From IMG/VR virus record IMGVR_UViG_3300050821_009856, positions 22,248-86,247 of that record: a stretch of DNA of 64,000 nucleotides, one strand, 5' to 3'. This document shows, one piece after another, positions 1,346-61,367 of this stretch. Both the position numbers and the translations under genes were made by a program. The stretch comes from a virus. Position 1 is the first letter of the stretch. Each line of letters starts with the position of its first letter. Under the pieces are notes generated by a model. It did not search any database, was not told the origin of the DNA, and saw nothing but the letters and a program-made list of their open reading frames with translations.

Positions 1346-4300
1346 ATGCCATTTTTGAATTTTGCAACTCCTCATTGTCATGTGGATTCGCTAGACTCCG
1401 CATCAACCCCGAAAGCCTTCGCTCAGCGCGAGCTTGAACTGGAGACCGGGGCTCTCACCATCACAGATCACGGTACTCTGCAGTCTGTCCGGAAGGTCTA
1501 CGACTTAGTCAAGGACAAGAAGTCGCCTTACTTCGGGAAACTCACCCCTATCCTTGGTGTAGAGGGCTACTTCCGAGATGACAGCTGCCCTATTCTTGCC
1601 GCGGCGGGGGTACCCAAGAACGACAAGGGCACGTACGTCGACTTCTTCAAGTACGGACACCTGACTCTTCATGCTCTCGATGCCGATGGCTACGAGACGC
1701 TCTGCCGAGTTCTCTCCGATGCTGATGGCCACGCCGAGAAGCACGGCTCTGAACGCAAGCCCCTCTTCACCTGGAGGGACCTAGAGGAGCTTGGGGGCAA
1801 GAACATCACAGTAGGTAGTGGCTGCCTTATTGGCATGGTTCAGCGGTTCATCATGGCTCATGGGCGCTTCGACCTGGCCGAGGCCTACTACCGTCGACTC
1901 CGATCCACCTTCAAGCCTGGTAACTTCTTCGTAGAGGTCTTCCCGCACGTTTGCGACCGGAACTGGGACGAGACGGTCTTCGTGAAGTTCTCGGACGGTA
2001 GCACCGAGAAGTTCCCTATCTACAAGAACCTCAAGACTGACAAGAAGCCGACCGGCAAGAAGGGTGGTGAGGGATGGAAGGCCAAAGACTTGGCTGCCAA
2101 TTGGCATCGTAGTCCTGAAGGCCATGGCTGCCTTCGGGCTGTCATGCAGGATCGGAAGTGGGTTGAGTACGACTCGCCACGGCAGATCGTTGGCGTCGAG
2201 CACCTACAGGACTTCATCGTCAATGACTGCCAGCCCTGGGCGCCTGGTGGTGACCTGCAATACGGCTGCAACAAGGCGGTCATCGAGTTGGCCGCCAAGT
2301 ACGGCGACAAGATCCTCATCAGCGATGACAGCCATTTCGTCAGGCCTGATGAGAAAGTCATCCAGGACATCCGACTGCAGCAGAGCGGTAGCTGGCGATT
2401 CAGTAGCGCCCACTTTCGGTACAGCAGCGACGATGCCTGGCAGTACTTCCGTGACGTCCTCCAGGTCCCCGAGGCAACCTTCGAGTCGTGGATCGACAAC
2501 AGCAGAGAGTGGAGTCAGCGTTTCAAGGACTTCAAGTTCAAGGACCGGGCGAGCCTTCCCGTAAAGTTCTACCCAGCAGACAGCTGGCGTCACACGGCTC
2601 AGCTAGTACTTCGCCATGGGCGTATGCAGGTTGATCCGCCACATGTCGAGCGGTTTAAGTCGGAAATTGAACTGCTCCATAAGAACGGCACTATCGACTT
2701 GCTGCCGTACTTCTTCATCGATGAAGAGGCGGTCTACCAGTATGAACGCCGCGGCGAACTGACTGGCCCAGGCCGTGGGTCTGCCGCCGGCTTGTCTCTG
2801 ACGTATTTGATGGGCATCACGCATGCGGACCCGCTTCGATATGGTTTGAGTAAGGACCGATTCCTGACCCTCGACCGCATCCAATCAAAGAAGCTCCCCG
2901 ACATCGACCAAGACCTGCCTGAGCGCGAGAAGACTCTTCTGCCATGGCTAGAGAAGAGGTTCGCTGGCCACTACGCACAGATCAGCGTCGATACAACCCT
3001 AAAGCTCCGGTCGAGCGTCAAAGATGTTGCTCGGTGGAAGCGAGCCAAAGATGGGAAGAGCGGCTTTGTCCCTCCAGAGATTGAGAACCTGGCGAAGAAG
3101 TTCGAGGAGGCCCCTCAGGGGGTAACCGACTACGATTTCGTCTTCGGCTACAAAGGAGCTGATGGCTGGGTTCAGGGGAGCCTTGACCACGATCCGGCGT
3201 TGCAGCAATACATTGCCCTGTTCCCCGATGAGTGGGCTCTTGTTCAGAAGTGCCTGGGCCTGAGTCGTCAGAAGGGCAGGCACGCTAGCGCCTTCGTCAT
3301 CACCAACGAGCCCATCAAGAACTTCATCCCCCTGACGTCCGTCTCTGATGTAACTGTCACCCAGTTCACCGCCAACAGCGTCGAAGCGATGGGAGGTCTG
3401 AAGATGGACTTCTTGGTGGTGTCAGCCCTGAACGACATCGGGGCCTGCATTCGTTTGATTCAGAAGCGAAGCGCCGACCAGTCACAGCCCTGGTCGTCTG
3501 CCTACCAGCATTTCGATACGCCTTTCAATGACATCCCGGACGATTTTGTGCCACCGTCGATGACCATTGATGGACTCCGAGTTCCCCTGTTGAGGGTCGT
3601 GCCGTTCAAGGGCGGACACGTTGACATCTGGGACCTGCCAGAAATCCAGGCTGTCTTCAGGGAAATCTGTGAGCAGCGTACGGAAACGGTGTTTCAGTTC
3701 AATACCCCTGGGGCCAAGAAGTGGCTTCGGCACTTTGACTCAGTGAGCGGGGTCGAAGCAGATGGCACCGTTCACAAGGCTCTCGACAGCATTGAAGACC
3801 TGGCTGCCTTCACGGCCCTTGACCGGCCAGGGCCACTCGATGCAACGCCGACACCTGATACGACCCACAATATGCTCGTGGAGTTCGCCAATCGAGCCAA
3901 GGGGAAGCCAGCTGTAGGGGTTGTTCCTATGCTGATGCAGCTTATCAGCGAGACCCATGGTGTCATCACCTACCAGGAACAACTGACTCGCATCTTCAGG
4001 GAGACTGGCAAGTCGACGGCTATTGAGGCAGAGAACTTCCGGATCCACGTCAGCAAGAAGATGCCGATGGAGATTATCAAAGACAAGGCGATCTTCATGA
4101 AAGGGGCAGTCGAGACTGTTGGCCCCGAAGTCGCCGATCAGCTTTGGTCCATGATGGAGACTTTTGGCCAGTACGGATTCAACAAGAGCCACGCCGTCTG
4201 CTACGTCATCATCAGCTATGCCTGCGCCTGGCTGAAGCACCACTTCCCTCTGGAATGGTGGACGTCCGTTCTGACGAATGCAGATCGGAAGGAGATTGAA

Positions 4301-5236
4301 GAGAAGTTCTGGCCGTACTGCGGGCATCTCATCGATTCGCCGGACATTAACAATAGTGGTGACGGGTTCGAAATCCAGGGGACCAGGATTCGAGCACCCC
4401 TGAATCTCATCCAGGGGATCGGTCCCGCGGGTTCAGCAGAACTGAACGCCAATCGCCCTTACGCAAGCCTCCGCGAGTTCTGCGAGAAAATCGTAGCCCA
4501 GAAAAGGGCCACCAGCACTACGACCTTGGACCCAGAAAACGGGAAGTCGTCTGTGAAGGCTGGACGTTCGGCACTTCACCGCGGCATTGTCACCCGACTG
4601 ACTTGCTCCGGTGTCATGGATAGCTTGTTTGGTCCAGAGGTCCTAGACGAAGTTGGCCAGAAGTTAGAGGCCTATGAGCGGATCACCGCAGAGCTAGCGA
4701 AGAAGAGGAAGTGGCAGCCCGTTGACCCGTTCTACACGACGATGAACCCCATGCAGAGGTACCAGCTGAAGAAGTCCATCCTGTCAGCGTATGGCGCGGA
4801 TCTGATTCCGATGGCCCTCGACATGAAGGTAGAGGGGTTCAGGATGACGCCGACAGGATGTGAGTACGCCATCGACAAGGGGCGGATGGGAGTCATCCGG
4901 GCCCTCGACTTGGAAGTGCTCGGGCAACAGACCCTATTGCCGCCTGGTGGTCTGAAGTTCGTCGTCCTGGCCTATGTCAACGCCGATGTCCGACAAAAGT
5001 TTCAGGGCACCAAGGACATGGCGAAGCTAACCCTGGATGTTGAGGGCCATCGACAGGAGTTTGTTCAGTGGCCCCGCCGCGGCGAAGAGATCCTCCCGAT
5101 TGAATACCGTTCAGGGAGCCTCAAGGGTGCTGTGGTCGCCGCTATATTGACTCGGTGGAACTCGGAGAAGCCTTTTCAGATCTCCGGAATAGAGGTTCTC
5201 CAGCCACCGCTGAAGGACCTCAAGGAAGAGGAATGA
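1346..5236 (+). CDS. dnaE: DNA polymerase III alpha subunit (family C)
   Basis: PHP motifs HCH, TDHG, DDSH; GPGRGSAAG; catalytic PDIDQD; GRHAS; KMDFL; YGFNKSHA. Confidence 0.97.
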   Translation: MPFLNFATPHCHVDSLDSASTPKAFAQRELELETGALTITDHGTLQSVRKVYDLVKDKKSPYFGKLTPILGVEGYFRDDSCPILAAAGVPKNDKGTYVDFFKYGHLTLHALDADGYETLCRVLSDADGHAEKHGSERKPLFTWRDLEELGGKNITVGSGCLIGMVQRFIMAHGRFDLAEAYYRRLRSTFKPGNFFVEVFPHVCDRNWDETVFVKFSDGSTEKFPIYKNLKTDKKPTGKKGGEGWKAKDLAANWHRSPEGHGCLRAVMQDRKWVEYDSPRQIVGVEHLQDFIVNDCQPWAPGGDLQYGCNKAVIELAAKYGDKILISDDSHFVRPDEKVIQDIRLQQSGSWRFSSAHFRYSSDDAWQYFRDVLQVPEATFESWIDNSREWSQRFKDFKFKDRASLPVKFYPADSWRHTAQLVLRHGRMQVDPPHVERFKSEIELLHKNGTIDLLPYFFIDEEAVYQYERRGELTGPGRGSAAGLSLTYLMGITHADPLRYGLSKDRFLTLDRIQSKKLPDIDQDLPEREKTLLPWLEKRFAGHYAQISVDTTLKLRSSVKDVARWKRAKDGKSGFVPPEIENLAKKFEEAPQGVTDYDFVFGYKGADGWVQGSLDHDPALQQYIALFPDEWALVQKCLGLSRQKGRHASAFVITNEPIKNFIPLTSVSDVTVTQFTANSVEAMGGLKMDFLVVSALNDIGACIRLIQKRSADQSQPWSSAYQHFDTPFNDIPDDFVPPSMTIDGLRVPLLRVVPFKGGHVDIWDLPEIQAVFREICEQRTETVFQFNTPGAKKWLRHFDSVSGVEADGTVHKALDSIEDLAAFTALDRPGPLDATPTPDTTHNMLVEFANRAKGKPAVGVVPMLMQLISETHGVITYQEQLTRIFRETGKSTAIEAENFRIHVSKKMPMEIIKDKAIFMKGAVETVGPEVADQLWSMMETFGQYGFNKSHAVCYVIISYACAWLKHHFPLEWWTSVLTNADRKEIEEKFWPYCGHLIDSPDINNSGDGFEIQGTRIRAPLNLIQGIGPAGSAELNANRPYASLREFCEKIVAQKRATSTTTLDPENGKSSVKAGRSALHRGIVTRLTCSGVMDSLFGPEVLDEVGQKLEAYERITAELAKKRKWQPVDPFYTTMNPMQRYQLKKSILSAYGADLIPMALDMKVEGFRMTPTGCEYAIDKGRMGVIRALDLEVLGQQTLLPPGGLKFVVLAYVNADVRQKFQGTKDMAKLTLDVEGHRQEFVQWPRRGEEILPIEYRSGSLKGAVVAAILTRWNSEKPFQISGIEVLQPPLKDLKEEE

Positions 5237-6015
5237 AGATGGGCACACCGCTTGTGAATCTCCTGGAGGGCATCAAAGCGTCTCAGGCCGATGCCGATGT
5301 AGACATCGACCAATACCCGATGAAGTACCGACCCGCCAAGGCTATCGCCAAGGCCGACGGCGCTAAGTCGCTGGAGGCTTTCAAGAACGAGTACGCTCGG
5401 GAGTTCGGAAATCGGTCCGCAGTGATTCTCATCACCGGCAGTGCCGCTGCCCAGCAGGCGTTCATGGCCGTGGCCAAGGAGATCGGCGGCACCAACCTCC
5501 TGTCTGCCTCTGCTCTGGAGGCCTATAGAAAGATGGCTGACGATGTAGAGCCGACCATCGGCCGAGAGCGCGAGTTTGCCGGCACCCAGCTTGGGCATTT
5601 GCTTCGGTCTGTTGAGGCTGTTGGGAAGGAAGCTGGGTCGTCCTTCTTGAAGACTCCGACCCTCATCGACGGCGTCTTCATCGTCCGCACCTTCGACGAC
5701 CTGGTGACGGGCATCCGAGATCTGCTGCTCCCACAAGTCGGCGCCGTCCTCAACCGGGATTACCTGCAAACGGTCCTCCTTCGTCAAGCAATTGAGCAGG
5801 AGTTCTCTGCGTCGACAGCCGCTATCGTCGTCACTGACGCTTCACCGAAGGAAATCGAATTCTTCACTACCAACCTGTTCAACGGCGTCGGCATCGTCGT
5901 TGACTTGCCAGAAGACGTATCGAAGATTGACAACAAGTTCGTTGTTGCCACCTTTGATGCCCTGAGGGCAACCAAAAAGCAAGCCGACAACCTGCAGTTC
6001 AATTCCAGCCACTAA
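5233..6015 (+). CDS. hypothetical protein, possibly a degenerate dNMP-kinase fold
   Basis: ATGA overlap with the dnaE stop; VILITG without GKT; IVVTD..PKEIEF. Confidence 0.6.
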   Translation: MKMGTPLVNLLEGIKASQADADVDIDQYPMKYRPAKAIAKADGAKSLEAFKNEYAREFGNRSAVILITGSAAAQQAFMAVAKEIGGTNLLSASALEAYRKMADDVEPTIGREREFAGTQLGHLLRSVEAVGKEAGSSFLKTPTLIDGVFIVRTFDDLVTGIRDLLLPQVGAVLNRDYLQTVLLRQAIEQEFSASTAAIVVTDASPKEIEFFTTNLFNGVGIVVDLPEDVSKIDNKFVVATFDALRATKKQADNLQFNSSH

Positions 6016-6029
6016 CAAGAGGAAACACA

Positions 6030-7277
6030 ATGTCACTCCGCGATTCATTCGGTAAGCCCAAAGAGGGCGGCAAGTTCGAGATCATCACTGTTGGCGAAGG
6101 GGAGTCGAAAGTCTTCCGCTTCATGGCGCCGATGAAGTCTATGGCTCCCAAGGGTATCTGGGGTCGGTACATCAAGCAGCACTACGGCTACGGCGTCAAG
6201 GACAAGAAGAATCCTGATGGCAAGCTGCGGCTGCGCCCCTTCGAGTGTATCGAGGAGAAGGAAGAGTCTGGGCTCGTGACTACCAGCTGCCCTGAGGATC
6301 GGAACATCGAGAACCAGCGGCAGGCCGAGAAGGATGCCATTGCCGTCCGCACCGCGGATCTGCGCGCCAAAGGTGCCAGCAAGGCCGAGCTTGAGGCTGA
6401 AGAGGCGAACGTCCACAAGGCCTTCGCGGTGTGGTTCCGTGACCACAATCTCGACTGCAAGTGGTTCATCCCTGTCAAGACTGAGGACGGCAAGTTCGGA
6501 CTCCTCAAGATTCCACACAAGGGGAAGAAGGCCATTGACAAGGTCCGGACCAAGATGAAGAGTCAGAAGAAGCCCATCGAGATGTTGGACATCGACACCG
6601 GCTTCTGGGTTCGGGTCACTCGCACCGGCACCGGCCTTCAGACGGACTACGAGGCTGAGGTGGTGGTGGAGATGAAGACCCTGCCGAACGGCGAGGAGTA
6701 CCCGGTCACCAAGCTGGCCCCGCTCAGCGATGCTGACCTGGAGCAAGCTCTGGCTAGCATCCCCGACCTTGGAAGTTCACAGCTGGTCCGTCGTCTGACC
6801 AAGGACCAGATCCAGATGTTGGTGGACTCGAAGGGGAATCCGGATGTCGTCGAGACGGTGCTCAACATGAGCCAGAAGGTCAAGACGGCCGACACCGTGG
6901 TCGAAGAGGACGAGGCCGAGGCCGAGCCGATTGTTACTACTGGAACTGTGGCAACGACCAATCCGCCCCCGGTGCAGCTTACCGTTACCTTGCCGCCTTC
7001 GGTTCAGGTGACGCCGGCCGTGATGGTCGAACTGAAAGAGACCCACGCTACCGCAATGGCCGAGCTGGATGAAGAGGCCGAGCTGATGCGGAAGCTCCAA
7101 GAAACCCGGGCCAAGAAAGCCGCGGCAGCTGCCGCGACGACTTCGGCGCCGGTTCAACAGCCGGTTTCGAAACCGGCTACAGTCGTGAAGGCCGCAAACC
7201 CGCTGGATCCGTCGATGTCTGATGACGACTTCATGCGACTTTACGGCCCCGGCTCAACGGCTGCCTCAGCCCGATAG
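6030..7277 (+). CDS. putative single-stranded DNA-binding protein (gp32-like) with low-complexity C-terminal tail
   Basis: FRFM..HYGY..C..C..W, DIDTGFWVRVTRTGTGLQTDY; position beside the recombinase; Ala/Pro/acidic tail. Confidence 0.65.
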   Translation: MSLRDSFGKPKEGGKFEIITVGEGESKVFRFMAPMKSMAPKGIWGRYIKQHYGYGVKDKKNPDGKLRLRPFECIEEKEESGLVTTSCPEDRNIENQRQAEKDAIAVRTADLRAKGASKAELEAEEANVHKAFAVWFRDHNLDCKWFIPVKTEDGKFGLLKIPHKGKKAIDKVRTKMKSQKKPIEMLDIDTGFWVRVTRTGTGLQTDYEAEVVVEMKTLPNGEEYPVTKLAPLSDADLEQALASIPDLGSSQLVRRLTKDQIQMLVDSKGNPDVVETVLNMSQKVKTADTVVEEDEAEAEPIVTTGTVATTNPPPVQLTVTLPPSVQVTPAVMVELKETHATAMAELDEEAELMRKLQETRAKKAAAAAATTSAPVQQPVSKPATVVKAANPLDPSMSDDDFMRLYGPGSTAASAR

Positions 7278-7285
7278 AGGACTTC

Positions 7286-7310
7286 GGGGCCCGCAAGGGC
7301 CCCAAATTTT
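7286..7310 (+). terminator. intrinsic terminator-like hairpin
   Basis: GGGGCCC-GCAA-GGGCCCC followed by AAATTTT, just after the SSB stop. Confidence 0.7.
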
Positions 7311-7312
7311 CC

Positions 7313-7966
7313 ATGCAACTAGACATCCCGATTGTTCCGAAGGACGGTACGTCGGTCCTCAGCTTCAACATGGACCGCATCTACCAGGCTGAGCGTCGAA
7401 ACGACGAGATCGCCATCGCCAACGAGCACAAAGCTCCTGAGTTGATGGCCTTCTTTAACCGGGCGTACATCGACGCCACTGACTACAGTAACGCCCTGGC
7501 TGCGGAAGTGATGAGGGCTAAGAAGCTGGCCGAGAGACGGAAGTCGTCAGTCATTTTGGACGAGGTCCCACGGATCCTACGGGAGAAGGGGCTCGTTCCC
7601 GAGGGCAGCTCCAAAATCAGTGGAACGGTGCTTCAGCAGGAGGCCATCCTCACTCAGGACGTCGAGTACCAGGCTGCAGTCGACCTGGTGGACGGGTTGA
7701 ATCACTACAAGGACTTGATGGACAGGAAGATGAAGACCATCGAGAACATGTACCTGGGCGTCCGGAAGATGATCGGCGGCGACAGGATGCAGTGGGTAGG
7801 GCGTGGGACATCGGCAGGTGCGCCGGTGCTTGAAGACGAGACCTCCAAGTCGGTACGGGAACACGCCGCGGCTTGGGCTCCTAAAGGGGAGAGCGCTAGT
7901 CCGCTGCCGCCGCTACCGCCGCAACCTCGTACCCTGAGATCCTCCTTCGGATCTCCGCGGGACTAG
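7313..7966 (+). CDS. putative UvsY-like recombination mediator
   Basis: helical protein with QDVEYQ..Y..KMKTIEN; lies between SSB and the RecA-like gene. Confidence 0.5.
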   Translation: MQLDIPIVPKDGTSVLSFNMDRIYQAERRNDEIAIANEHKAPELMAFFNRAYIDATDYSNALAAEVMRAKKLAERRKSSVILDEVPRILREKGLVPEGSSKISGTVLQQEAILTQDVEYQAAVDLVDGLNHYKDLMDRKMKTIENMYLGVRKMIGGDRMQWVGRGTSAGAPVLEDETSKSVREHAAAWAPKGESASPLPPLPPQPRTLRSSFGSPRD

Positions 7967-7993
7967 CCCGCTATCTTCAGTTAGGAGAACAAC

Positions 7994-9127
7994 ATGGGTA
8001 AGACCAATTGGAAGTCCAAGCTGGCTACGCTTGAGGGGGCCGTTGACACCTCAGTGCAGCGGAACATCCACTCAACGGTCATCCAGACCGTGTCGCCAAG
8101 CATTAACTTCACCTATGGCCGCGGTTGGGGCTTGCCTAAGGGGTTCTCGCTCGTCCTGTACGGTCCTCCGAAGGCCGGCAAGTCTGTCCTTACGTACATG
8201 CACGCCGCCGGAGTTCAGCATGACTACCCCGAGGACTTCGTCCTCAAGTTCAACACCGAGTTCCGTGAAGAGGGACAGCTCGACGCGAAGGGGATGCAGA
8301 TCTTCGGCATCGACAAGGACCGGTACCAGGGCATCAATGTCAACAACCCAGGCCTGATTTACGATACCATCGAGCAGAAGGTTGCTGCCTGGTGCGCTGA
8401 CGGCATGAAGGTCGGCCTGATCATCATCGACAGCCTTAATGGTGTCCAGGGCCGGCGTGTCCAGGAATCCGTTATGGATCAGACCATCGGTGACGTGGCA
8501 CAGACCAACAAGGAAGGCCTCAAGCGCATCTTGCCGGTTCAACGCAAGTACGGCTTCAGCCTCATCTTGACGTCACACGTTGCTATCGAGATGGACCCCA
8601 TCGAGCAGAAGCGTGGCAACAAGTTCAAGATGGGGGCCAGCGTCGGCGTCCAGCACCACGGCGAGTACTTCATGTACGTTGAGTCGAGCAAGAACAAGGC
8701 TGACCTGGCAGACCTGCTTGGGAAAGAGTTCCGAGACGAGTCGACCAAGGATCTGTTCGGTGCCGACGGTAAGGGCGAGCAAACCGGATTCAAGATTCGT
8801 GCGACCATGAAGGAGTCCACCTTCGGGATCCGCGGTCGCACCGGTCAGTTCACCTGGGATTACGCCAAGGGTGTCATCAACCAGCATGAGGAGGTCTTCT
8901 TGCTGGCTACGCGCCGAAACATCATCGAGCGGCCAAACAACACCTCGTACATCTTCAAGGACCAGAAGTGGGTGGGCAAAGAGACGATGATTTCTGCCCT
9001 CAAGGACTCCACAGAGCTGCAGGGCGCCATCCTCAAGGAGCTACAGGATCGTGACCTCCAGGGTCGCTTGGTGGCCTACGACCAGGTTGAGGCAGCTGCA
9101 GCTGCCGACCCCGAGCTGGAGGAGTAA
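7994..9127 (+). CDS. RecA/UvsX-like recombinase
   Basis: Walker A GPPKAGKS, FNTE, Walker B IIIDS; AGGAG ribosome-binding site. Confidence 0.9.
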   Translation: MGKTNWKSKLATLEGAVDTSVQRNIHSTVIQTVSPSINFTYGRGWGLPKGFSLVLYGPPKAGKSVLTYMHAAGVQHDYPEDFVLKFNTEFREEGQLDAKGMQIFGIDKDRYQGINVNNPGLIYDTIEQKVAAWCADGMKVGLIIIDSLNGVQGRRVQESVMDQTIGDVAQTNKEGLKRILPVQRKYGFSLILTSHVAIEMDPIEQKRGNKFKMGASVGVQHHGEYFMYVESSKNKADLADLLGKEFRDESTKDLFGADGKGEQTGFKIRATMKESTFGIRGRTGQFTWDYAKGVINQHEEVFLLATRRNIIERPNNTSYIFKDQKWVGKETMISALKDSTELQGAILKELQDRDLQGRLVAYDQVEAAAAADPELEE

Positions 9128-10218
9128 TGCCAGGCCTCCAGCGTGGAGGCTGTCGTCCGGAAGCACTCCGAGAGTTCATCGAGTCGTCTGGTCTGAAGTT
9201 TCGTCCTGGCGCGAAATCCTGGATCTTCGAGTGTCCCAAGTGCGGTAAGAGGGACAAGCTCTACATCCGCAGGTCAGACGGCGCCTACATCTGCTGGTAC
9301 TGTGCAGAGACCATCGGCTACAAGGGTAGGAACCCGGAGTACGCACTCGCCGACCTGATGAACATCAGCGTTGCCGCCGTTAAAGAGAAGCTCTACGGCG
9401 TTAGTGCCCCAGAAGATGGCGGTACTCCGTGGGTGAACATCAAGCTCCAGGACTTCTACGCTGAGATAGATGAGCTAGACGAGGACCTGGAAATCTTTCA
9501 GATGCAGGAGCGGCTCTGGCCGCCCGATTACTACGACCTTGGTCAGGCCTGGAGTCAGCCCGGTCGCCAGTATTTGCTTGGCCGCGGCATCGATGACGAC
9601 CTGATTCGGTACTACCACCTGCGATACGACCCGAGCCGAGAGCGTGTCATCTTCCCGGTTGAATATCAGGGGAAGCTCTACGGTTGGCAAGCCCGTTACA
9701 TCAAGCCTGACTCGGGTGTGAACCCGGAGACAGGAGTCGAGTGGCGGATCCCCAAGATTCTTACAAGTGACCCGTTCGAGCGCGAGAAGATCGTCATGTT
9801 CGCCGATCAGCTAGATGGGGCCAAGCAAGCAATCATCTGCGAGGGTCCAGTCGATGCCATCAAGTGCCATGCCTGCCACCCTGAAGGGCAGCCAGGTGGC
9901 AACGTCGTCACCATGGGGAAGGCCGTGTCGACACGTCAGATAGCCTTCATCCGGAATGCCGGCATCCATCAGATCTACCTGGGGCTCGATCCTGATGCGG
10001 CCCAGGAAATTCCGCGGCTGGTTCAAGCCTTCCCTGACTGCAAGCTGTTCCTGATGCGCCCATCCAAAGGGGCTAAGGCGCCAGACGGGAAGCCGGCCAA
10101 GGACCTCGGAGACCTAGACCTGGAGACTGCTCGCGGTGCCTGGTTGAGTGCCGAGCCGATCCGCCCCGGGATGATTTTCGTTTACCTGGACCCGGGTGGC
10201 ATCCCCCGTTGGCGATGA
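9127..10218 (+). CDS. DNA primase (Zn finger + TOPRIM)
   Basis: CPKC...CWYC; YL..RGI; RVIFP; GWQAR; ICEGPVDA; LGLDPD; KDLGD. Confidence 0.9.
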   Translation: MPGLQRGGCRPEALREFIESSGLKFRPGAKSWIFECPKCGKRDKLYIRRSDGAYICWYCAETIGYKGRNPEYALADLMNISVAAVKEKLYGVSAPEDGGTPWVNIKLQDFYAEIDELDEDLEIFQMQERLWPPDYYDLGQAWSQPGRQYLLGRGIDDDLIRYYHLRYDPSRERVIFPVEYQGKLYGWQARYIKPDSGVNPETGVEWRIPKILTSDPFEREKIVMFADQLDGAKQAIICEGPVDAIKCHACHPEGQPGGNVVTMGKAVSTRQIAFIRNAGIHQIYLGLDPDAAQEIPRLVQAFPDCKLFLMRPSKGAKAPDGKPAKDLGDLDLETARGAWLSAEPIRPGMIFVYLDPGGIPRWR

Positions 10219-11499
10219 CTTCTTGCTCCGACACGGCTTGCAGTAGGACTGGCGTTTGACGTATTTCGGACGTCCCGCGTCGTCCCTCTCCATGACTCGC
10301 ACACCGATGTCTGCCTTGGGCAACTCCAAGTGACACTTCCGGCACTCCAGGAGATCCGGCAAGCTTACAAAAAAGGTGTCGATGATGTTGGTCGGAGAGC
10401 AAGTCTGACAATCCAGGCGGTGGACCTTCAGCTCACCGCGGGCCCCAGTCCTGACTGTCTCCCGGTTGCTGTCAGCCAACATGGTGATGATGGAAATGAA
10501 TTCCGAGTGTGGGAACTTCCGCAGATCCGAACTGAACTTCATGGGGTCACAGGCCTGGCAGGTGGTCCAGTGCTGACCCAGCATCTTCCTCGCCGCGGAT
10601 CTGATATCCGATTCGTAACCGGCAATGAACTGGTGTCGGAGAGTCCTCAGCAGCTCATCGTGGTCCAGATCTTCAACCTCCGACCAGACGTCCACCTCGG
10701 ATTCGTTCTTGACGGCGCAGAGGGACATCTCTCCTCCTTCTCCGTACTGACGAACGTGGTGAATGTCCAATCCCAGGTCGATGGTCTCTTCGTCGACCAG
10801 GATGTTCGCCGCCTTCCGACGCAACAGGGGGAGCAGATCCGAGTAGAAACGCTGCTGCAAGTACGAGCAGAGCATCTTCCCGTTCTCTCCCTTCTTAGCG
10901 TTGATTTTTCGCCATCGGCCGTGAAAGTTCGTCAGGTAGATCATGGCGTACGTCTCCAGGTCCGAGACGTCGAAGGCCATGTTCTGGCAGAGCCTGAGGT
11001 TGTTCCTGTAGAACTTGTGGCAGTACCATTCCATGATTCGCCGGTAGTCATCGTCGGCGTACACGGAGGCGGGCAAGTTCGCCACCTGGCGGAACTCTCT
11101 GTGTCGGATAGCGACAAGTTCGGGGGCGTCTTCCGACTTCACGCGGTCCGGCCGGGTCGTCCCACAATCGGGATTCGGGCAGATCTTCTCGTCAGTCAGT
11201 TCCTGGTGGCAGCGCATGCACCTGCGAGCCCCGCGGTCTACCGGCTGGGGGCGCCCGTAGCCAGCTGCCTCCGTGACGGTCCAGAAGACCTTCAGGGCCT
11301 TGTCAAGTGGTGCCGTCAGGTCGTCGGCGCGGATCGCGGTCCCTGCTGTTGGCTGATCCACGACGATCTTCACGGGGATCTCTCCGACAGTCAGGTCTCG
11401 GTCAGCTGCCTGGTCCAGTCGATACGGGACCTTGACGGCGTCCAACCAGCCAACCAGAATCGTAAGTGCTCGGGACTCTTTCAACTTCATGGATCTCAT
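10114..11499 (-). CDS. candidate phage sigma factor (sigma region 2-like) with multiple Zn-binding motifs
   Basis: YRRIMEWYCHKF..FDVSDLETYAMIYL..MLCSYLQQRFYSDLLPLLRR follows the sigma70 region 2 pattern; own promoter and GGAGG before ATG 11499; two HxxxCxxC motifs plus CxxC pairs. Confidence 0.55.
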   Translation of the reverse strand: MRSMKLKESRALTILVGWLDAVKVPYRLDQAADRDLTVGEIPVKIVVDQPTAGTAIRADDLTAPLDKALKVFWTVTEAAGYGRPQPVDRGARRCMRCHQELTDEKICPNPDCGTTRPDRVKSEDAPELVAIRHREFRQVANLPASVYADDDYRRIMEWYCHKFYRNNLRLCQNMAFDVSDLETYAMIYLTNFHGRWRKINAKKGENGKMLCSYLQQRFYSDLLPLLRRKAANILVDEETIDLGLDIHHVRQYGEGGEMSLCAVKNESEVDVWSEVEDLDHDELLRTLRHQFIAGYESDIRSAARKMLGQHWTTCQACDPMKFSSDLRKFPHSEFISIITMLADSNRETVRTGARGELKVHRLDCQTCSPTNIIDTFFVSLPDLLECRKCHLELPKADIGVRVMERDDAGRPKYVKRQSYCKPCRSKKSSPTGDATRVQVNENHPGADRLGTQPGTASSLQV

Positions 11500-11556
11500 C
11501 GGGCCTCCGCCGCTATCGTGTCGTTGCAGGTGGTTACGGTGCTCATCTTCCAACAG

Positions 11557-11586
11557 ACTGTAAGGAGTTCCAGCACCGGCTGTCAA
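11557..11586 (-). promoter_or_regulatory. sigma70-type promoter for the antisense sigma-like gene
   Basis: TTGACA-18 nt-TACAGT on the minus strand. Confidence 0.7.
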
Positions 11587-11641
11587 GTCGTGTGTCGGTG
11601 TAAGTTCAGCAACTACAGTCGTTTGAGGGGTCGTCAAGCCG

Positions 11642-13156
11642 ATGGACAGTAGCGCTGCGGAAGAGGCCGAACGGCGAGCCGTTGAGCCGAAAGTAGGGGA
11701 TCAGCTCCCCTTCAGCCCCGCCAAGCAAGATGCCGTACTTGGCCATCTCCTGATGAACAGGACGTTTTTCCTGACTTGCAAGGACAGAATTAAGCCTAGC
11801 TGGTTTGCTGAGGGGCTGTCTCAACGCGTTTGGACTGCCGCCCTGGACTATTACCAGCAATTCCAGCTGATTCCGAGAGCGGACACCGATCTGCTCCAGC
11901 ATAACCTGATCCAGAGAGAACGCCAGGACCTTCGTAACGCCGTCGAGGCCAAAATCAAAGGGGCCATGCACCAGGCCACCCTCTACCACCTGAAGGCCAT
12001 CGAGACCGAGCTAACGGATTGGCTCCGGGCCCGGCTGTACTTCGAGGGGGTCAACAAGAGCGCCGAGACCTGGAACCGCGGCCAGCTCGTGACCGCCTAC
12101 GATATCCTCGGTAAGGCCTACCGAGAAATCCAGGGTACGGTATTCCATCCGGACACCGCAGCCAGCTTCAAGGACCTGAAAGCGCTGACCAACAAGGTCC
12201 AACTGGATATTCAGAACGCCCTGACCTTTGGATCGACCATTGTCGACAAGCTCATCCTGAAGAACGCTGTCTCTGGCGGTCTTCTGCCCGGCGGCACAAC
12301 CATCCTGGTAGCACCGACCGACATCGGCAAGACAACCACGCTCATGACCATCGCTTGCGCGAACATGAAGCTCGGGAAGTCCGTACTGTTCATCGCCCAC
12401 GAGGGCATCGAAGCGCAGCTGCAGCTGAAGTTCCTTTGCTGCATGTTGGGGGAGACCCTCGATTGGTTTTTGTCGAATCTCTCGAATCCGGATCCGAGCA
12501 TTCAGAGGCGTATCACCAGGGCCCAGGTCATCCTCGATAACAAGCTGACGTTCATCCACTACGTCAAGGCAGGGATGACTGTCGAGCAGGTAATGGCCAT
12601 CATCCGACGGCGCCAGGAAGAGCGCCTGGTAACCACTGGCCATGGGTACGACCTACTGGTCGACGACTACGCTGCGAAGCTTACCACTGAGGAAGCAAAG
12701 CACGGGAAGCTTGAGAAGCGGCAACGCGACGAAATCGTGTACCGCCAGTTCATCGATATTGCCCTTGAGTTCGAGTTCCATCATCTGGGTGCCATCCAGA
12801 CAAATCGCGAGGGCTCTAAAATCAACCGCGGCTTCAAAGGCTATGAGGACCGACTCTTGGAGATGGAGGACGTGAGCGAGAGCATGTCGGTGATGAACGA
12901 CGCTCACTGTGTAATCACCATTAACCGGCCGCCGATTGCCATGGCCCAAGAGTGGGTTACCTATCACATCTCCAAGTCGAAGTTTGGTTCGACCGGTTGG
13001 GCAATTATCTGCAGATCGAACTTCGGTTGCGGTGTCTCCCACAGCAATGACCTTGGGGGCATCTGGTATCGGGGTAGTAGCAGTGGCTCGGAGCGGATCG
13101 ACCAGCTCCTGACGGCCTATAACAACCAACAGCTGCCAGCTACCGAGAAACTCTAG
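11642..13156 (+). CDS. replicative DNA helicase (DnaB/T4 gp41-like)
   Basis: Walker A APTDIGKT, FIAHE, Walker B LLVDDY, QTNR, SES, KSKFG. Confidence 0.9.
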   Translation: MDSSAAEEAERRAVEPKVGDQLPFSPAKQDAVLGHLLMNRTFFLTCKDRIKPSWFAEGLSQRVWTAALDYYQQFQLIPRADTDLLQHNLIQRERQDLRNAVEAKIKGAMHQATLYHLKAIETELTDWLRARLYFEGVNKSAETWNRGQLVTAYDILGKAYREIQGTVFHPDTAASFKDLKALTNKVQLDIQNALTFGSTIVDKLILKNAVSGGLLPGGTTILVAPTDIGKTTTLMTIACANMKLGKSVLFIAHEGIEAQLQLKFLCCMLGETLDWFLSNLSNPDPSIQRRITRAQVILDNKLTFIHYVKAGMTVEQVMAIIRRRQEERLVTTGHGYDLLVDDYAAKLTTEEAKHGKLEKRQRDEIVYRQFIDIALEFEFHHLGAIQTNREGSKINRGFKGYEDRLLEMEDVSESMSVMNDAHCVITINRPPIAMAQEWVTYHISKSKFGSTGWAIICRSNFGCGVSHSNDLGGIWYRGSSSGSERIDQLLTAYNNQQLPATEKL

Positions 13157-13170
13157 GCTATTATCCTCGC

Positions 13171-13773
13171 ATGGGCAAACCCACCGAGAAAGAGTTGAGG
13201 CAGCAGGCCGACCAAGCAGACTCCCTTGTAGCTGCTGTCGGCAACGCCCAGAACCTGAGATTCGAGCCACTCAGTAGGACCATCTTCCTCTGGTCTGACA
13301 TTGAAAACGAGGCGGCCTGTCAGTTCGGCGTGACACTGATGGTTGTGGATCAGACGCTGGGCCCAATCAGACTCGTGATGAATAGCTGTGGCGGCCACTC
13401 CGAGGCAGGTCTGGCCATCTACGATGCCATCAAGACGGCCAAGAACCGCGTGGACATCGACGTCTATGGGGCCTGCGAGAGTATCGCCGCAATTATTCTG
13501 CAGGCCGGGCAGCGTCGACGGTTGTCGCGAAACACCGAGTTCATGGTGCATGACGGTTCCATTCAAATGGACGGCTGGGAATCTGCCAGGGACCTAGCCA
13601 TCTGCAGCAAGCAGCTCGGCAACGTGAATCGACAGATGCACAAGCTCCTGGCCAGTCGATCGAAAATGTCCGAGGCCGCGATTAGGAATCGATGCCGCAA
13701 TGACTTCTATTTGACGGCCGATCAGGCGGTCCGGCTCGGCTTCGCCGACGAAATCATCAAGGAGACCAGATGA
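13171..13773 (+). CDS. ClpP-like protease
   Basis: NSCGG, GLAIYDAIK, CESIAA (Ser), FMVHDG (His), DFYLTADQAVRLGFADEI. Confidence 0.9.
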   Translation: MGKPTEKELRQQADQADSLVAAVGNAQNLRFEPLSRTIFLWSDIENEAACQFGVTLMVVDQTLGPIRLVMNSCGGHSEAGLAIYDAIKTAKNRVDIDVYGACESIAAIILQAGQRRRLSRNTEFMVHDGSIQMDGWESARDLAICSKQLGNVNRQMHKLLASRSKMSEAAIRNRCRNDFYLTADQAVRLGFADEIIKETR

Positions 13774-14612
13774 ACATCGACCTTAAACCTGTCGGAGATG
13801 CTGCGCTGCAGCTGCTTCTGAAGCATGTTCGAACGGTCCTGACTGTTCTGGCGTTCGCCGTCCTTGCGCTCGTCGCGACCGTAAAGATTCACGGGCTGCA
13901 GAGCCAGGTCACCCTGGCCCAGAATCAGGCCGCCCTTGCATCTAAGACGGTAGAGGAAGACAAGGGAGTCTTTGAACGCCAGGTCCAGGCCGACAAGTCA
14001 GCTCTGCAATCTATGCTCAAGGGATCGGATCAGCAGCTCCAGGAACTCAGGGGTCTGCTGAAGCAGAAGAGTGAGCAGCTGGACAACGCCACCACTGTGT
14101 CGGTTCAGCTTCGGAAGGCTCTTCAGGCTCAGACCACGGCCGTACAGACGCAGCAGCAGCCTCCTGCAGCCGGAGGCGGTCCGTCTGCTACTTCTCGGGT
14201 TCGAGTGGACTTCGACCACGACTTCGGCTGGCTCCGCGTGACCGGCTACACGTTGACGGATCCGGCATACGGATTTCTGACCATTAATAACGGCAGCCGC
14301 CCCCTGAAGCTGACAGTTGCTCTCAGCAAGGACAGGCAGAACGCCTGGCACGCCTACGTGACGTCGTCGGATGTCGCCATCAGCGCCGATGTACTGATTG
14401 CCGCGGTTGACCCGTCGATTCGTGACGTGAAGTGGTACGAGCGTCTAGGCGTTATGGGCAACGTAGGGGTCGGTGATGGGTTGCTCGTTGGTGCAGGGCT
14501 GACTCTAGATATTGGCCGCTTTACTGTCGGCCCGGCGGTCTGGTTGAGCGTCAATTCCCAGGTCAGCAAGTACTACGGTATCGCCGCGGTCTGGCGGCCG
14601 TTCGCTCGATGA
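13770..14612 (+). CDS. membrane-anchored coiled-coil protein with C-terminal beta strands
   Basis: N-terminal hydrophobic helix, Gln-rich coiled coil, Gly/aromatic amphipathic C-terminal strands. Confidence 0.7.
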   Translation: MNIDLKPVGDAALQLLLKHVRTVLTVLAFAVLALVATVKIHGLQSQVTLAQNQAALASKTVEEDKGVFERQVQADKSALQSMLKGSDQQLQELRGLLKQKSEQLDNATTVSVQLRKALQAQTTAVQTQQQPPAAGGGPSATSRVRVDFDHDFGWLRVTGYTLTDPAYGFLTINNGSRPLKLTVALSKDRQNAWHAYVTSSDVAISADVLIAAVDPSIRDVKWYERLGVMGNVGVGDGLLVGAGLTLDIGRFTVGPAVWLSVNSQVSKYYGIAAVWRPFAR

Positions 14613-15682
14613 CTGCAGATCCCGACAAGTTTCTGGTCCGGGGCGCCGGGCCAGAGGGAACCTACAACTTAGCGGTTGGAGAACCGGTCTTTCTCCGGAA
14701 GCATCTAGTGGTTCCTCAGAACCTCCTGGTCTCAAACATCGGGGGATCTGACTACCCACCCTACAAGGGGCTCCCACGGCTCCTGGAGGAGCTTGGGTGG
14801 ATGTACCCAGGCAAGCACGTGGTAGTGACGACCGGGGCCAAGCAAGCCCTCCTGGCGGCCTTCTATGCGTATCGGCAGCGCTTCGGGAAACAGGCCGTTT
14901 ACCACGAGGCTCCGTGCTGGCCCTCTTACCCCACGTTGGCGAAGTTGTCGGGCCTGAGCTTTCAGTCGGATCGTATGTCCCTCCTCTGCTTGACGGATGA
15001 GTTCTTCGCTCGTCGATACATCAGCGTCAAGACGGCCCCTAACAATCCCGATGGACGTGTCGCAGACCGGTTGGATTTGAAGCACTACGACATCTGGGAT
15101 GCGGCATATGCCCACCCAGTTTACGGATGGAATCCGGCAGATCTCCCGAGCCATACTGTATCGGTCTGGTCTGCTGCCAAGTTGCTTGGGTTTAGTGGTG
15201 ACCGAATCGGCTGGCTGGTGACTGGAGACAAGGAGCTAGCGGATCTCGCCGCAGACTACATCGAGAAGACGACTTCGGGGGTCAATACCAAGAGTCAGGC
15301 CATCATTGCAGCGGTACTCGGCTATATCAGGTGCTTTCCCGAAGAAGGTCGGAAGATGTACGAGGCTGCCCGCAACGATCTGCTGCACAACTTCATGCGG
15401 TTCATCCAAACGTTCGGGCCGAGCGTCAGGAATGCAAAAGACTACTCTGGAATGTTCGGTTGGTTCGACCTGCCTTACGACGTGGGGGTCCGCCAGGAAG
15501 AGTTCGATGCCCTCCTTCGAGAGGCCAGGGTGATGCTGGTGCCGGCGTCAGCCTGCGGCGTTCTAGATAAGCCTGGCAGATATCGGATTTCTCTCGGCCA
15601 CCGCGTGGAAGTGGTTGATGCGGCGCTACAATCCATCTCTGAAGCCCTTTGGAGGCGTCGTGGACCGCTATTCGGAACTTGA
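14609..15682 (+). CDS. PLP-dependent aminotransferase class I/II
   Basis: TTGAKQAL, PNNPDG, WDAAY, SAAKLLGFSGDRIGW (PLP lysine), YRISL. Confidence 0.92.
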   Translation: MTADPDKFLVRGAGPEGTYNLAVGEPVFLRKHLVVPQNLLVSNIGGSDYPPYKGLPRLLEELGWMYPGKHVVVTTGAKQALLAAFYAYRQRFGKQAVYHEAPCWPSYPTLAKLSGLSFQSDRMSLLCLTDEFFARRYISVKTAPNNPDGRVADRLDLKHYDIWDAAYAHPVYGWNPADLPSHTVSVWSAAKLLGFSGDRIGWLVTGDKELADLAADYIEKTTSGVNTKSQAIIAAVLGYIRCFPEEGRKMYEAARNDLLHNFMRFIQTFGPSVRNAKDYSGMFGWFDLPYDVGVRQEEFDALLREARVMLVPASACGVLDKPGRYRISLGHRVEVVDAALQSISEALWRRRGPLFGT

Positions 15683-16292
15683 AGCAAAGTACAGCGCAAA
15701 CCAGTTGCCCTTCAGTCGCTTCCGAACTGAGATGGACAAGCTGACTTCACTGAAGCAGCCCCACGTTGTCGTCGGATGGGACACTTTCTACGCCAACCCG
15801 GAGACCGGCCTGGTTCTCAGATTCCGGCGAGCAAAGTCCGAGGGCAACGATCACCCCGTCCTGACCTACAAGTACAGGAAGTCCGTTGGGGCCGACAGTG
15901 TCGATCGCCATGAGGTCGATTTGTTCTTGGAGAACAACGACAAGGTTGAAGAGGACACTGACGCCCTCTTGACAATGGCTCTGGGCTGCAAGAAGCATTT
16001 CTCCATTCTGAAGGAGAGCTGCATCTATCACATCGAGGGGGCGGGGCACACAGCCGTCATCGCCCTGTACGATGTCATGGTGCCGGGCAACAATTACGTA
16101 GAGCGCTTTCTTGAGGTAGAGATCGACAAGGATAGCCCATGTACGCCTGAAGAAGGCGCCGCAGCCTTGGCCGCATGGCAAGAGGCCGTTGAATCCCAGT
16201 TCGACCTCCAAAGGCCACTGGGCCAGTCGCTATATGAGCTACTGGGTCGTAACTACGGAGATCCTGAACTTTTCATCAAGGGAACTTTCTGA
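15660..16292 (+). CDS. CYTH-domain protein (class IV adenylate cyclase / triphosphatase fold)
   Basis: N-terminal ELEAK (ExExK), LRFR, LTYK, RHE, FLEVE; GGAGG before GTG 15660. Confidence 0.8.
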   Translation: MDRYSELEAKYSANQLPFSRFRTEMDKLTSLKQPHVVVGWDTFYANPETGLVLRFRRAKSEGNDHPVLTYKYRKSVGADSVDRHEVDLFLENNDKVEEDTDALLTMALGCKKHFSILKESCIYHIEGAGHTAVIALYDVMVPGNNYVERFLEVEIDKDSPCTPEEGAAALAAWQEAVESQFDLQRPLGQSLYELLGRNYGDPELFIKGTF

Positions 16293-16483
16293 TGCCACTC
16301 ACCGAAGAGCAGTTTGCCGAGATCCTGGACGAAGTCATCGACGAGACTCTGGACCTGAAGAAGCAGGACCGAGTCCGATTCAACAACGCCCTCCTGGAGC
16401 GGCTCGGGGAGGAAGATGTCTTCCCTGAAGAGGATGAGGACGAGGGTCTCACTGAAGAGCAGATCGATGCGGAGGAAGAGTGA
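16292..16483 (+). CDS. small highly acidic protein
   Basis: overlapping start/stop codons on both sides; Glu/Asp-rich. Confidence 0.7.
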   Translation: MPLTEEQFAEILDEVIDETLDLKKQDRVRFNNALLERLGEEDVFPEEDEDEGLTEEQIDAEEE

Positions 16484-17322
16484 TGAAGGCCCTAGTCTTG
16501 AGTGGTGGCGGATCTAAGGGGGCCTATGAGGCCGGCGTCGTCAAGTACCTCATGGACTTCGAGGGCCGACGATATGACCTCTTTGCTGGAGTCAGTGTTG
16601 GGGCCCTGAACGCTGCCTTCTTGGCTCAGTACGGAGACGTTTCACCGCTTAGCGTCCATTCTCAGCAATACGCCGCCGAGGACTTGGTGAACCTCTGGAA
16701 GAGCCTCGACAACTCGAATGTCTTCAAGAATTGGTTTCCGCCCTATGTCTCTGCGCTCTGGAGGCCGTCGGTCTTCGATAGTTCGCCGCTCCAGAAGCTC
16801 GTCCGTAGCATCCTGAAGAAACCAGGCCCGAATAAGAAGCTCCGAGTTGGAGCGACTGGCCTGGACACGGGTACCTTCCGAGTCTTCGACGAGACCTACC
16901 CAGATGTCGCTACTGCGGTGCTCGCTAGTTCGGCATTCCCCGGCATGCTGCTGCCCGTGGAGATCGAGGGGCAGCTCTACACCGATGGCGGTGTCTGCAA
17001 CAACACACCGCTCCGACAGGCCATCTCGGCAGGAGCCACGGAGATCGACGTTATTCTTTGCTCGCCCTTGGACGACCCGTCCACGTCCTTCCAGGCCAAG
17101 ACGACCGCAGTGAATGTTGGCTTCCGGGCCATCAGCCTCTTGACCGACCAGGTTCAGCGGGACAGCCTGGTCGACTGTATGGTCAATCGGACAGATCTGA
17201 AGATTCGGCTCATCAAGCCTTCGGCTGTGCTGACCAGTAATCCGTTGGACTTCTCCCCATCGCTGATTGCGTCGATGCTCAAGCAAGGCTATGCTGACGC
17301 CGAAAAGGGGCTATCCAAATGA
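16480..17322 (+). CDS. patatin-like phospholipase
   Basis: GGGSKG, GVSVG nucleophile, ASSAFP, DGG. Confidence 0.93.
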   Translation: MMKALVLSGGGSKGAYEAGVVKYLMDFEGRRYDLFAGVSVGALNAAFLAQYGDVSPLSVHSQQYAAEDLVNLWKSLDNSNVFKNWFPPYVSALWRPSVFDSSPLQKLVRSILKKPGPNKKLRVGATGLDTGTFRVFDETYPDVATAVLASSAFPGMLLPVEIEGQLYTDGGVCNNTPLRQAISAGATEIDVILCSPLDDPSTSFQAKTTAVNVGFRAISLLTDQVQRDSLVDCMVNRTDLKIRLIKPSAVLTSNPLDFSPSLIASMLKQGYADAEKGLSK

Positions 17323-17942
17323 CCACCTGGTTTACCTCGGACCTTCATTTCAACCACGTCAACATCATGCTGCCGTCGTACACGCGGCGGGAAGAGACGT
17401 TCCCAGACCTTCAGGCCATGAACGAGGGGCTGGTTCAGCGCTGGAACGAACGGGTCAAGCCAGATGACGACGTGTACCTCATTGGCGACTTGGCGATGGG
17501 GAAGAAGGCTGAGGCCTTGCCCTACCTGAATCGCCTCGTCGGCCACAAGCACCTCATCTTCGGAAACCACGACTACAAAGACCACAAGTGCACCGCCGTG
17601 CACCCGGCCATCCTTCAGGCCTATAAGGAGGGGGTGCTTGAGACCACCGTAGAGAGCCTACCGGTTCTTGAGAATGGGAAGCGACTCTTCCTCCACCATG
17701 AGCCCTGCTCGGTGCCAGAGACCTTCGACTATGTATTCTGCGGCCATGTTCACGAGTCGTTCACCCGCGCTCGTTGGGATGCCGAGAGGCTGAACACCGA
17801 GACGGGCAAGCCCGGTGTTGCGGTCGCGGATCCAGATGGCAATATCATCAACGTCGGTGTGGACGTGAGCGACTACAAGCCGATGACGCTTGAAGAGCTT
17901 CTGGCTCGGCCTTTCTACGAGGGGCCGAAGCACAGGATCTAG
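17319..17942 (+). CDS. calcineurin-like metallophosphoesterase
   Basis: SDLH, GD, GNHD, HEP, GHVH, NVGVD. Confidence 0.92.
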   Translation: MTTWFTSDLHFNHVNIMLPSYTRREETFPDLQAMNEGLVQRWNERVKPDDDVYLIGDLAMGKKAEALPYLNRLVGHKHLIFGNHDYKDHKCTAVHPAILQAYKEGVLETTVESLPVLENGKRLFLHHEPCSVPETFDYVFCGHVHESFTRARWDAERLNTETGKPGVAVADPDGNIINVGVDVSDYKPMTLEELLARPFYEGPKHRI

Positions 17943-17950
17943 AATGTTAT

Positions 17951-18024
17951 TCCAGGGTGCCAGAGTCTGGTAATGGGCGTGACTGTTAATCACGAAGCCG
18001 GTGGTTCGAATCCACCCCCTGGAG
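17951..18024 (+). tRNA. tRNA-Asn (GUU), CCA not encoded
   Basis: acceptor TCCAGGG/CCCTGGA; anticodon stem CGTGA/TCACG with loop CTGTTAA; T arm GGTGG-TTCGAAT-CCACC; discriminator G. Confidence 0.93.
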
Positions 18025-61342: not shown

Positions 61343-61367
61343 CACTGGCGCAGAAGGGCGCTACAGT
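61339..61367 (+). promoter_or_regulatory. sigma70-type promoter, probably giving a leaderless mRNA
   Basis: TTGACA-17 nt-TACAGT; ATG 61374 lies 7 nt after the -10; no Shine-Dalgarno. Confidence 0.75.

Follow-up and report, generated by a model that had tools for sequence, protein, structure and literature searches.

A sigma-domain-2-like protein encoded among the replication genes of Mx1-like soil phages, a candidate factor for redirecting host RNA polymerase

The gene considered here, on the minus strand of a 64-kb window (the whole stretch of DNA analyzed, 64,000 nucleotides, to which all coordinates refer unless stated otherwise), belongs to virus record IMGVR_UViG_3300050821_009856 and encodes a protein of 461 amino acids (aa), P0003. 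Its central segment adopts, in structure prediction, the fold of sigma factor domain 2, and it is quite likely that the resemblance reflects homology. As suggested by fold comparison and by complex prediction, the protein is probably a highly diverged factor by which Mx1-like soil phages redirect transcription. The most specific explanation, to which a probability of about 0.5 is given, is that of an early-expressed, sigma-derived factor that would bind the beta' clamp helices and redirect the host RNA polymerase (RNAP) toward the promoters of the phage, a zinc-stapled hairpin replacing sigma regions 3-4.

The mechanism proposed for this factor would start with the host sigmaA holoenzyme, which would transcribe the gene early from a TTGACA-18-TACAGT promoter. 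The sigma-2-like domain (aa ~121-234), buttressed by an N-terminal domain with a weakly nuclease-like fold, would then dock onto the host beta' clamp helices by means of its region-2.2-like helix (D180, T183), and would displace the host sigma factor or compete with it. A -10-like promoter element would be read by the following helix, through its conserved polar side (N206, Y213, Q216, R217), and the zinc-stapled hairpin (H280/H310/C314/C317) would stand in for sigma regions 3-4. In this last feature P0003 would be similar to phage factors centered on region 2, such as T4 gp55 and AR9 gp226.

Fold of the central domain

The AlphaFold2 model of aa 1-240, built on a 104-sequence family alignment, reaches a predicted local distance difference test score (pLDDT) of 95 and a predicted template modelling score (pTM) of 0.89, and consists of one compact unit in which an alpha/beta N-terminal domain is packed against a helical domain. 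When compared by VIA-align with 48,161 representatives of the PDB, sigma domain 2 accounts for approximately 30 of the best 50 rows, always over aa 142-234. The best match is AR9 gp226 (7s01_A; Z 7.4, 2.7 Å, 84 aligned residues), in which the comparison covers chain residues 171-268 and thus overlaps the sigma-2-like part, placed by the authors of that structure at residues 184-316 (PMC9209446). Other matches include pro-sigmaK (8vjl_B; Z 7.1, 2.5 Å, 70 aligned) and sigma70 (1sig_A; Z 6.7, 2.2 Å, 71 aligned), along with SigB, SigE, sigma28, sigma32, sigmaS, WhiG, SigI, and many extracytoplasmic function (ECF) sigma factors. The model of the whole protein, which is of lower confidence, yields the same sigma-2 picture by VIA-align.

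The ESM atlas points in the same direction. For aa 118-240, Sigma70_r2 clusters make up 23 of 30 feature matches (score 0.94), and the top row by structure is a sigma-70 family cluster, with a TM score of 0.60. Helix 178-195 is the equivalent of region 2.2, and helix 205-232 that of regions 2.3/2.4. A first-pass annotation, made from the DNA letters alone, had described the central segment as similar to sigma region 2 in this same register, a description borne out by the fold comparison, by the ESM features, and by the predicted docking described below.

Downstream of this domain no canonical region 4 was detected, Sigma70_r4 and Sigma70_r4_2 giving no match at E <= 0.1 in the 104 family members, which agrees with the earlier remark that region 4 is missing from its usual place. 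The ESM atlas gives no usable feature match for aa 262-372, and the VIA-align rows for the helical repeats of aa 268-367 are generic VHS/HEAT-like arrays only. A short stretch of the form 'LxxLP(H/Q)DxxV...ARxEAxRxL' looks like a shortened region 4, by eye only.

Predicted docking on host RNA polymerase

The complex between aa 1-240 of the protein and residues 200-350 of the beta' subunit from Myxococcus xanthus was predicted together with three controls. It scores 0.76 versus 0.49 for the best control. Of 80 solved complexes, 58 attain that mark, as do 2 of 110 mismatched pairs. At least 83% of the contacts are shared between the runs, and the pLDDT of the partner is no lower than 81. In the predicted interface, beta' residues 268-302, which form the clamp helices, contact helix 179-190 as well as aa 125-147 and 88-98. 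This interface holds 6 of the 18 most conserved positions of aa 1-240, where 2.25 would be expected (hypergeometric p = 0.015). D180, conserved in 99% of the members, is on the contacting helix, which is the region 2.2 equivalent. The docking on the clamp helices is a prediction, one that may reflect surface likeness rather than binding, since sigma-2/beta' complexes have already been solved.

A second set of conserved residues, N206 (90%), Q216 (91%), and R217 (88%), is found on the region-2.3/2.4-equivalent helix, outside the predicted beta' interface, suggesting a second ligand such as DNA. As for the polymerase itself, no beta' homolog was found in Myxococcus phage Mx1 or in the four IMG/VR genomes searched, among which the complete records are Mx1 and three of the IMG/VR genomes. 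The related phages must therefore use the host RNAP, and they carry two sigma-like genes, the second of which, P0022, is described below.

A number of results weigh against a sigma-derived factor, and most of them concern sequence. The match to TIGR02937 spans aa 154-241 on profile positions 12-83, in the correct register, and stays at E 0.11 and 12.1 bits, beneath the cut-off of 42.9 bits. PF04542 (Sigma70_r2) has no match at E <= 0.1 in the 104 members, and hhalign against the P0022 sigma-like family places regions 2.1-2.3 in the expected register with an E-value of 0.4. Foldseek searches of the PDB with both models return nothing at E <= 0.001, and the sigma factor that ranks highest has E 6.5. 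The tryptophan dyad that sigma70 carries in region 2.3 is absent from the protein. To these are added the surface likeness already mentioned, the presence of a clearer sigma-like gene (P0022) in the same genomes, and the strict conservation of the gene's position between primase and helicase, which could indicate a role in replication. By the criteria of curated hidden Markov models (HMMs), the protein is not a member of the sigma-70 family.

Position among the replication genes

The gene is surrounded by those for a DNA polymerase III alpha subunit (PolIII-alpha), a RecA-like ATPase, a Toprim primase, a DnaB-like helicase, and ClpP (13171-13773; PF00574, E 4e-31). Synteny and the GC content at third codon positions (GC3) indicate that it alone is encoded on the minus strand within the set of replication genes at 1346-19096; both this peculiarity and the nearby ClpP gene had been noticed in the first pass. 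A homolog lies between the primase and the DnaB-like helicase in all seven related loci (Mx1, five IMG/VR contigs, and one JGI metagenome contig; identity 27-45%), and six of these loci have it on the opposite strand. The remaining one is L004, a complete genome of 171.7 kb, in which the homolog (5974-6834, 286 aa) is co-directional with the replication genes and abuts those for primase and helicase without gaps. Divergent orientation and an own promoter are therefore common, not obligatory.

This fixed position fits a protein of the replisome or the origin, such as a helicase loader, an initiator, or a primosome adaptor, whose helical domain would be merely sigma-2-like, and whose nuclease-fold N-terminal domain and zinc modules would make contact with DNA or with the neighboring primase and helicase. 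Such a role is nevertheless unlikely. The enrichment in sigma domain 2 among the best rows is specific, only two of them being subunits of the origin recognition complex (ORC), and the ESM features independently indicate Sigma70_r2. The predicted beta' interface, moreover, coincides with family-invariant residues. In T4, too, genes for late transcription are interspersed with those for replication.

Promoter, timing, and the second sigma-like gene

The promoter-like site 5' of the gene, already pointed out in the first-pass annotation, matches 10 of 12 consensus positions of the sigma-70/sigmaA type. The window has two matches to TTGACA-N15-19-TAYART, versus 0.02 expected, and both are located 5' of a correctly oriented gene. 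In L006, L007, and L008 the homolog is likewise preceded by a site of this type, whereas none was found at that position in Mx1 or L005. Because of the host-type promoter and the location in the replication module, the gene is probably expressed early.

Within the 142-bp divergent region that separates the gene from that of the helicase (11500-11641), TACAGT is found as an inverted pair, at 11562-11557 (-) and 11614-11619 (+), the plus-strand copy lying 22 nt ahead of the helicase ATG. The second complete site of the window, TTGACA-17-TACAGT, is at 61339-61367 (+). Together, the pair and this second site may represent the early promoter class of the phage. Target promoters could not be assigned from a crude k-mer search for common upstream motifs, which gave too much noise.

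P0022 is a protein of 366 aa encoded outside the window (G000:C1:7627-8727 (-), equivalent to L003:1495-2595 (-)). It matches TIGR02937 at E 4e-7, still under the cut-off, and its relatives are annotated as sigma-70 family by JGI. The protein stops just after a region-4.1-like 'LPIIERKLLRLRGISL', and therefore seems to be devoid of the region 4.2 helix-turn-helix (HTH). Mx1 and the four IMG/VR genomes searched all carry the P0022 family, each time alongside that of P0003. The first-pass annotation had proposed P0003 as a late sigma factor of the phage, a label that is weakened by the existence of this more canonical gene elsewhere in the same genome and that is not kept here; a different late sigma factor in the genome was among the refuting conditions which that annotation had itself set. 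Phages with two-factor schemes are known, SPO1 and T4 among them.

The heptamer YAATCTT is not over-represented in the window, with 11 matches versus 7.8 +/- 2.7 expected. Eight of the 11 copies are on the coding (minus) strand of the virion-gene block at 31550-55224, at intergenic gaps. It is taken as a candidate single-box late promoter, on the basis of its placement, and is assigned to neither of the sigma-like factors.

The co-occurrence with P0022 in every related genome searched also gives room to a protein that competes for RNAP or shuts off the host, blocking sigmaA on the clamp helices without recognizing promoters itself and perhaps passing the polymerase to P0022, the more canonical possible promoter reader. 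The fold evidence and the predicted beta' interface speak for this explanation as they do for the preferred one. It is compatible with an early gene under a host-type promoter, and would account for a protein in which no sigma-4 or HTH is detected and in which, as read from the sequence, the aromatic residues used by sigma70 to melt the -10 element are absent. It is, however, also improbable, since N206, Q216, and R217, which belong to the helix corresponding to DNA-reading regions 2.3/2.4 and are not part of the predicted beta' interface, are strongly conserved. Besides, ECF sigma factors, which also lack the tryptophan dyad, still read promoters. The same holds for T4 gp55, which reads promoters even though the dyad is absent (PMC7892883).

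A variant in which replication and transcription are joined can also be formulated, although it is considered doubtful: the protein would be a sigma-2-derived, fixed component of the replication module that couples the host RNAP to the replisome or the origin. If true, it could, for example, direct the transcription of a primer or an R-loop from an origin situated in the divergent promoter region of primase and helicase or, alternatively, make late transcription dependent on replication. Its N-terminal domain would read DNA structure, and it would represent a new class of sigma-like replication-transcription coupling factors.

The zinc site

The ligand set H280/H310/C314/C317, with the pattern H-x29-H-x3-C-x2-C, is whole in 91 of the 104 members. 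In the seven members of the Mx1 clade, both histidines have been lost together and a CPxC-x7-8-CxxC ribbon has been gained at the same place; in five of the 104 members the site is missing. This co-variation of the ligands indicates a single zinc site that staples a helical hairpin, and that can be replaced or dispensed with. Judging from the alignment, the site is probably structural rather than a switch of the ZAS type.

The first-pass annotation had read the HxxxCxxC motifs as a signature of ZAS anti-sigma factors (zf-HC2, PF13490), and had suggested gating by zinc, by redox state, or by proteolysis through ClpP. The likeness consists in HxxxCxxC with an upstream histidine ligand, placed on a helical hairpin. 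The differences are several. The first ligand is separated by 29 residues, versus approximately 23-26 in ZAS proteins, whose pattern is H/C-x23-26-H-x3-C-x2-C; the motif is C-terminal to the sigma-2-like domain instead of forming an N-terminal anti-sigma domain; HMM support is absent, with PF13490 matching 1 of the 104 members, at E 0.049; and some members hold a Cys4 ribbon or no site at all. In the fold comparison by VIA-align, the list for this region is filled with generic helical repeats. In addition, no ECF sigma gene adjoins that of P0003, whose neighbors are the primase and the helicase, the other sigma-like gene being located approximately 24 kb away. The faint PF13490 match, the spacing, the C-terminal position, and the lack of an adjacent ECF sigma gene leave the anti-sigma assignment and its gating unsupported.

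A self-gated sigma/anti-sigma fusion, in which a ZAS-like domain would fold onto the sigma-2-like domain until released by zinc loss, oxidation, or ClpP proteolysis, is thus very improbable: the widespread ligand pattern resembles that of ZAS, and a ClpP gene is found at a distance of two genes in this record as well as in Mx1, L004, L005, and L008, and near the homolog also in L007, where the helicase match is not seen, but the profile and spacing results, the failure of aa 262-372 to give a usable ESM match, the Cys4 swap, and the five members devoid of the site correspond to the behavior of a staple, not a sensor.

Gene structure and domain layout

The minus-strand open reading frame (ORF) runs uninterrupted through 10114-11637, with the probable start at ATG 11499, preceded at 4 nt by GGAGG. 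The gene is real. Its product is 100% identical to a database entry, and 18 homologs were matched too; its GC content at the three codon positions is 0.58/0.42/0.76, similar to that of adjacent genes. An overlying plus-strand ORF of 440 aa (10330-11652) was considered and rejected as a true gene. It has no family matches and shows the mirrored pattern (0.74/0.42/0.59), and is therefore an antisense artefact of the GC-rich gene. All of the sequence features listed by the first-pass annotation for this locus are present (Table 1).

Table 1. Coordinates of the gene, its putative promoter, and the segments encoding the parts of P0003.
Feature	Position in window	Strand	Remarks
P0003 coding sequence	10114..11499	-	ORF, start context, database identity, family, GC3 0.76
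Sigma-70/sigmaA-type promoter-like site TTGACA-18-TACAGT	11557..11586	-	58 nt 5' of ATG
N-terminal alpha/beta domain, aa 1-81	11257..11499	-	Weak PD-(D/E)xK endonuclease-like fold
Signature loop TEAAGYGrPqPVDRG, aa 77-90; G80, R89, G90 almost invariant	11230..11271	-	In predicted beta' interface
Cys4 zinc-ribbon insertion C94, C97, C107, C112	11164..11220	-	Lineage-specific, 5/104 members
Sigma region 1.2/2-like helical domain, aa 121-234	10798..11139	-	VIA-align, ESM, TIGR02937, complex prediction
First helical repeat with conserved zinc site H280, H310, C314, C317	10546..10698	-	HHCC in 91/104
Second repeat copy H331, H360, C364, C367	10396..10545	-	Lineage-specific; two HxxxCxxC in 5/104
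C-terminal Cys4 ribbon CRKC...IGVRV...RQSYCKPC	10231..10344	-	Long forms only, 11/104
Convergent overlap with 3' end of Toprim primase gene (9127-10218, +)	10114..10218		105 bp

In the N-terminal domain, no acidic or lysine position of aa 1-80 reaches 60% conservation, so that the catalytic D...(D/E)xK of PD-(D/E)xK enzymes was not found there. The two HxxxCxxC repeats announced in the first pass, which end in HWTTCQAC (from aa 310) and HRLDCQTC (from aa 360), with H280 and H331 lying 30 and 29 positions upstream, align with each other with a score of 52, versus 19.2 +/- 4.0 for shuffled sequences, and none of 500 shuffles attains this value. By this alignment they are a true internal duplication. 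The two Cys4 ribbons that had been described as N- and C-terminal are both present, the latter with ligands C386/C389/C420/C423; the former is internal, following the N-terminal domain. The ribbon of aa 94-112, the second repeat, the C-terminal ribbon, and the tail are lineage-specific extras.

The overlap with the primase gene involves the last 35 codons, which encode a disordered tail (aa 427-461, pLDDT <50). Within it, 'VNE(D/N)..G.D.L' is kept among the closest relatives only.

Family and distribution

Proteins of this family are mostly 300-400 aa long, and their conserved core corresponds to aa 1-320 of P0003. The near-invariant residues are G80, R89, G90, R132, H133, N141, D180, N206, Q216, R217, H280, and L287, followed in the distal part of the core by A303, H310, C314, and C317. 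A profile made from 19 homologs retrieves 651 cluster representatives (50% identity) at E <= 1e-3, 260 of them at E <= 1e-30. The Mx1-like phages are thus apparently a widespread soil lineage, with genomes of roughly 170 kb. The record of the window itself, of 86,247 bp and approximately 53% complete according to CheckV, comes from soil metagenomes (DNA runs, three studies).

Curated resources are silent about the family: Pfam, PHROGs, and NCBIfam hold nothing significant for P0003 or for sets of 19 and 104 family members. Among the 50,697 GenBank phage records searched by tblastn, the sole homolog is that of Mx1 (WNM70287.1), annotated as a hypothetical protein, and the only Foldseek match in BFVD is A0A6J5L217, an uncharacterized member of the family (E 4e-12). 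A single-protein search of genome contigs, able to reach close relatives only, found no relative; a degenerate DNA pattern for TEAAGYGxPxPVDRG had no matches in IMG/VR; and a sequence-profile search of the PDB gave chance matches only, none to a sigma factor.

Several neighbors of the gene are equally obscure. At E <= 0.001, Pfam has no match for the replication-block genes at 5155-6015, 6030-7277, 7313-7966, and 13770-14612, all of them conserved, and the homolog of 6030-7277 is annotated in Mx1 as a single-stranded DNA-binding protein. No sliding clamp gene was recognized in the window. The DnaB-like helicase beside the homolog has 871-892 aa in L008 (2996-5674) and L009 (2320-4935), versus 504 aa here, and just ~270-280 aa of these long forms align; the extra length may be an insertion, perhaps an intein, or a fusion.

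Comparison with known sigma factors

With the sigma-70 factors of groups 3 and 4 (TIGR02937, PF04542), P0003 shares the fold of domain 2, the alignment of D180-L181 with the 'DL' of region 2.2, and the register of regions 2.2/2.3. The helix PELVAIRHREFRQVANLP, which precedes the region 2 part, presumably resembles region 1.2. The protein differs from them in its HMM score (12.1 vs 42.9 bits), in that no sigma-3 or sigma-4 HTH is detected, and in its added N-terminal domain and zinc modules.

The closest parallels are found in phages. T4 gp55 is a factor made of sigmaR2 only, in which acidic residues of H3 touch the clamp helices (PMC7892883). Like gp55, P0003 comes from a phage and has a sigmaR2-like domain at its center, with no sigma-4 detected. 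An acidic-residue helix on the beta' clamp helices is shown for gp55 and predicted for P0003, and in both proteins extra helices follow the sigma-2 part, as a helix-loop-helix motif in gp55 and as the zinc-stapled hairpin in P0003. Both genes are also linked to the replication machinery. In contrast to gp55, P0003 is more than twice as long, holds an N-terminal domain of weakly nuclease-like fold as well as the zinc sites, and is probably early. There is no detectable sequence similarity between the two, PHROGs giving no match at E <= 0.001 among the 104 members, which means that no homology to gp55 was detected. A motif for binding the sliding clamp was not identified in P0003, with no test aimed at clamp binding having been made.

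The sigma-like subunits AR9 gp226 and phiKZ gp68 (PMC9209446) provide a further comparison. They differ from P0003 in that its relatives are devoid of a beta' homolog, so that the host RNAP would be its partner.

One of the two sigma-like genes of these phages escapes Pfam, PHROGs, and NCBIfam, and is labeled hypothetical in Mx1. Since Mx1 infects the genetically tractable M. xanthus, direct testing is possible. If confirmed, the family model could be used for annotating hundreds of metagenomic phages, and P0003 would join T4 gp55 and AR9 gp226 as a case of extreme sigma remodeling, in which region 2 has been retained, regions 3-4 have been swapped for a zinc hairpin, and a nuclease-fold domain has been gained.

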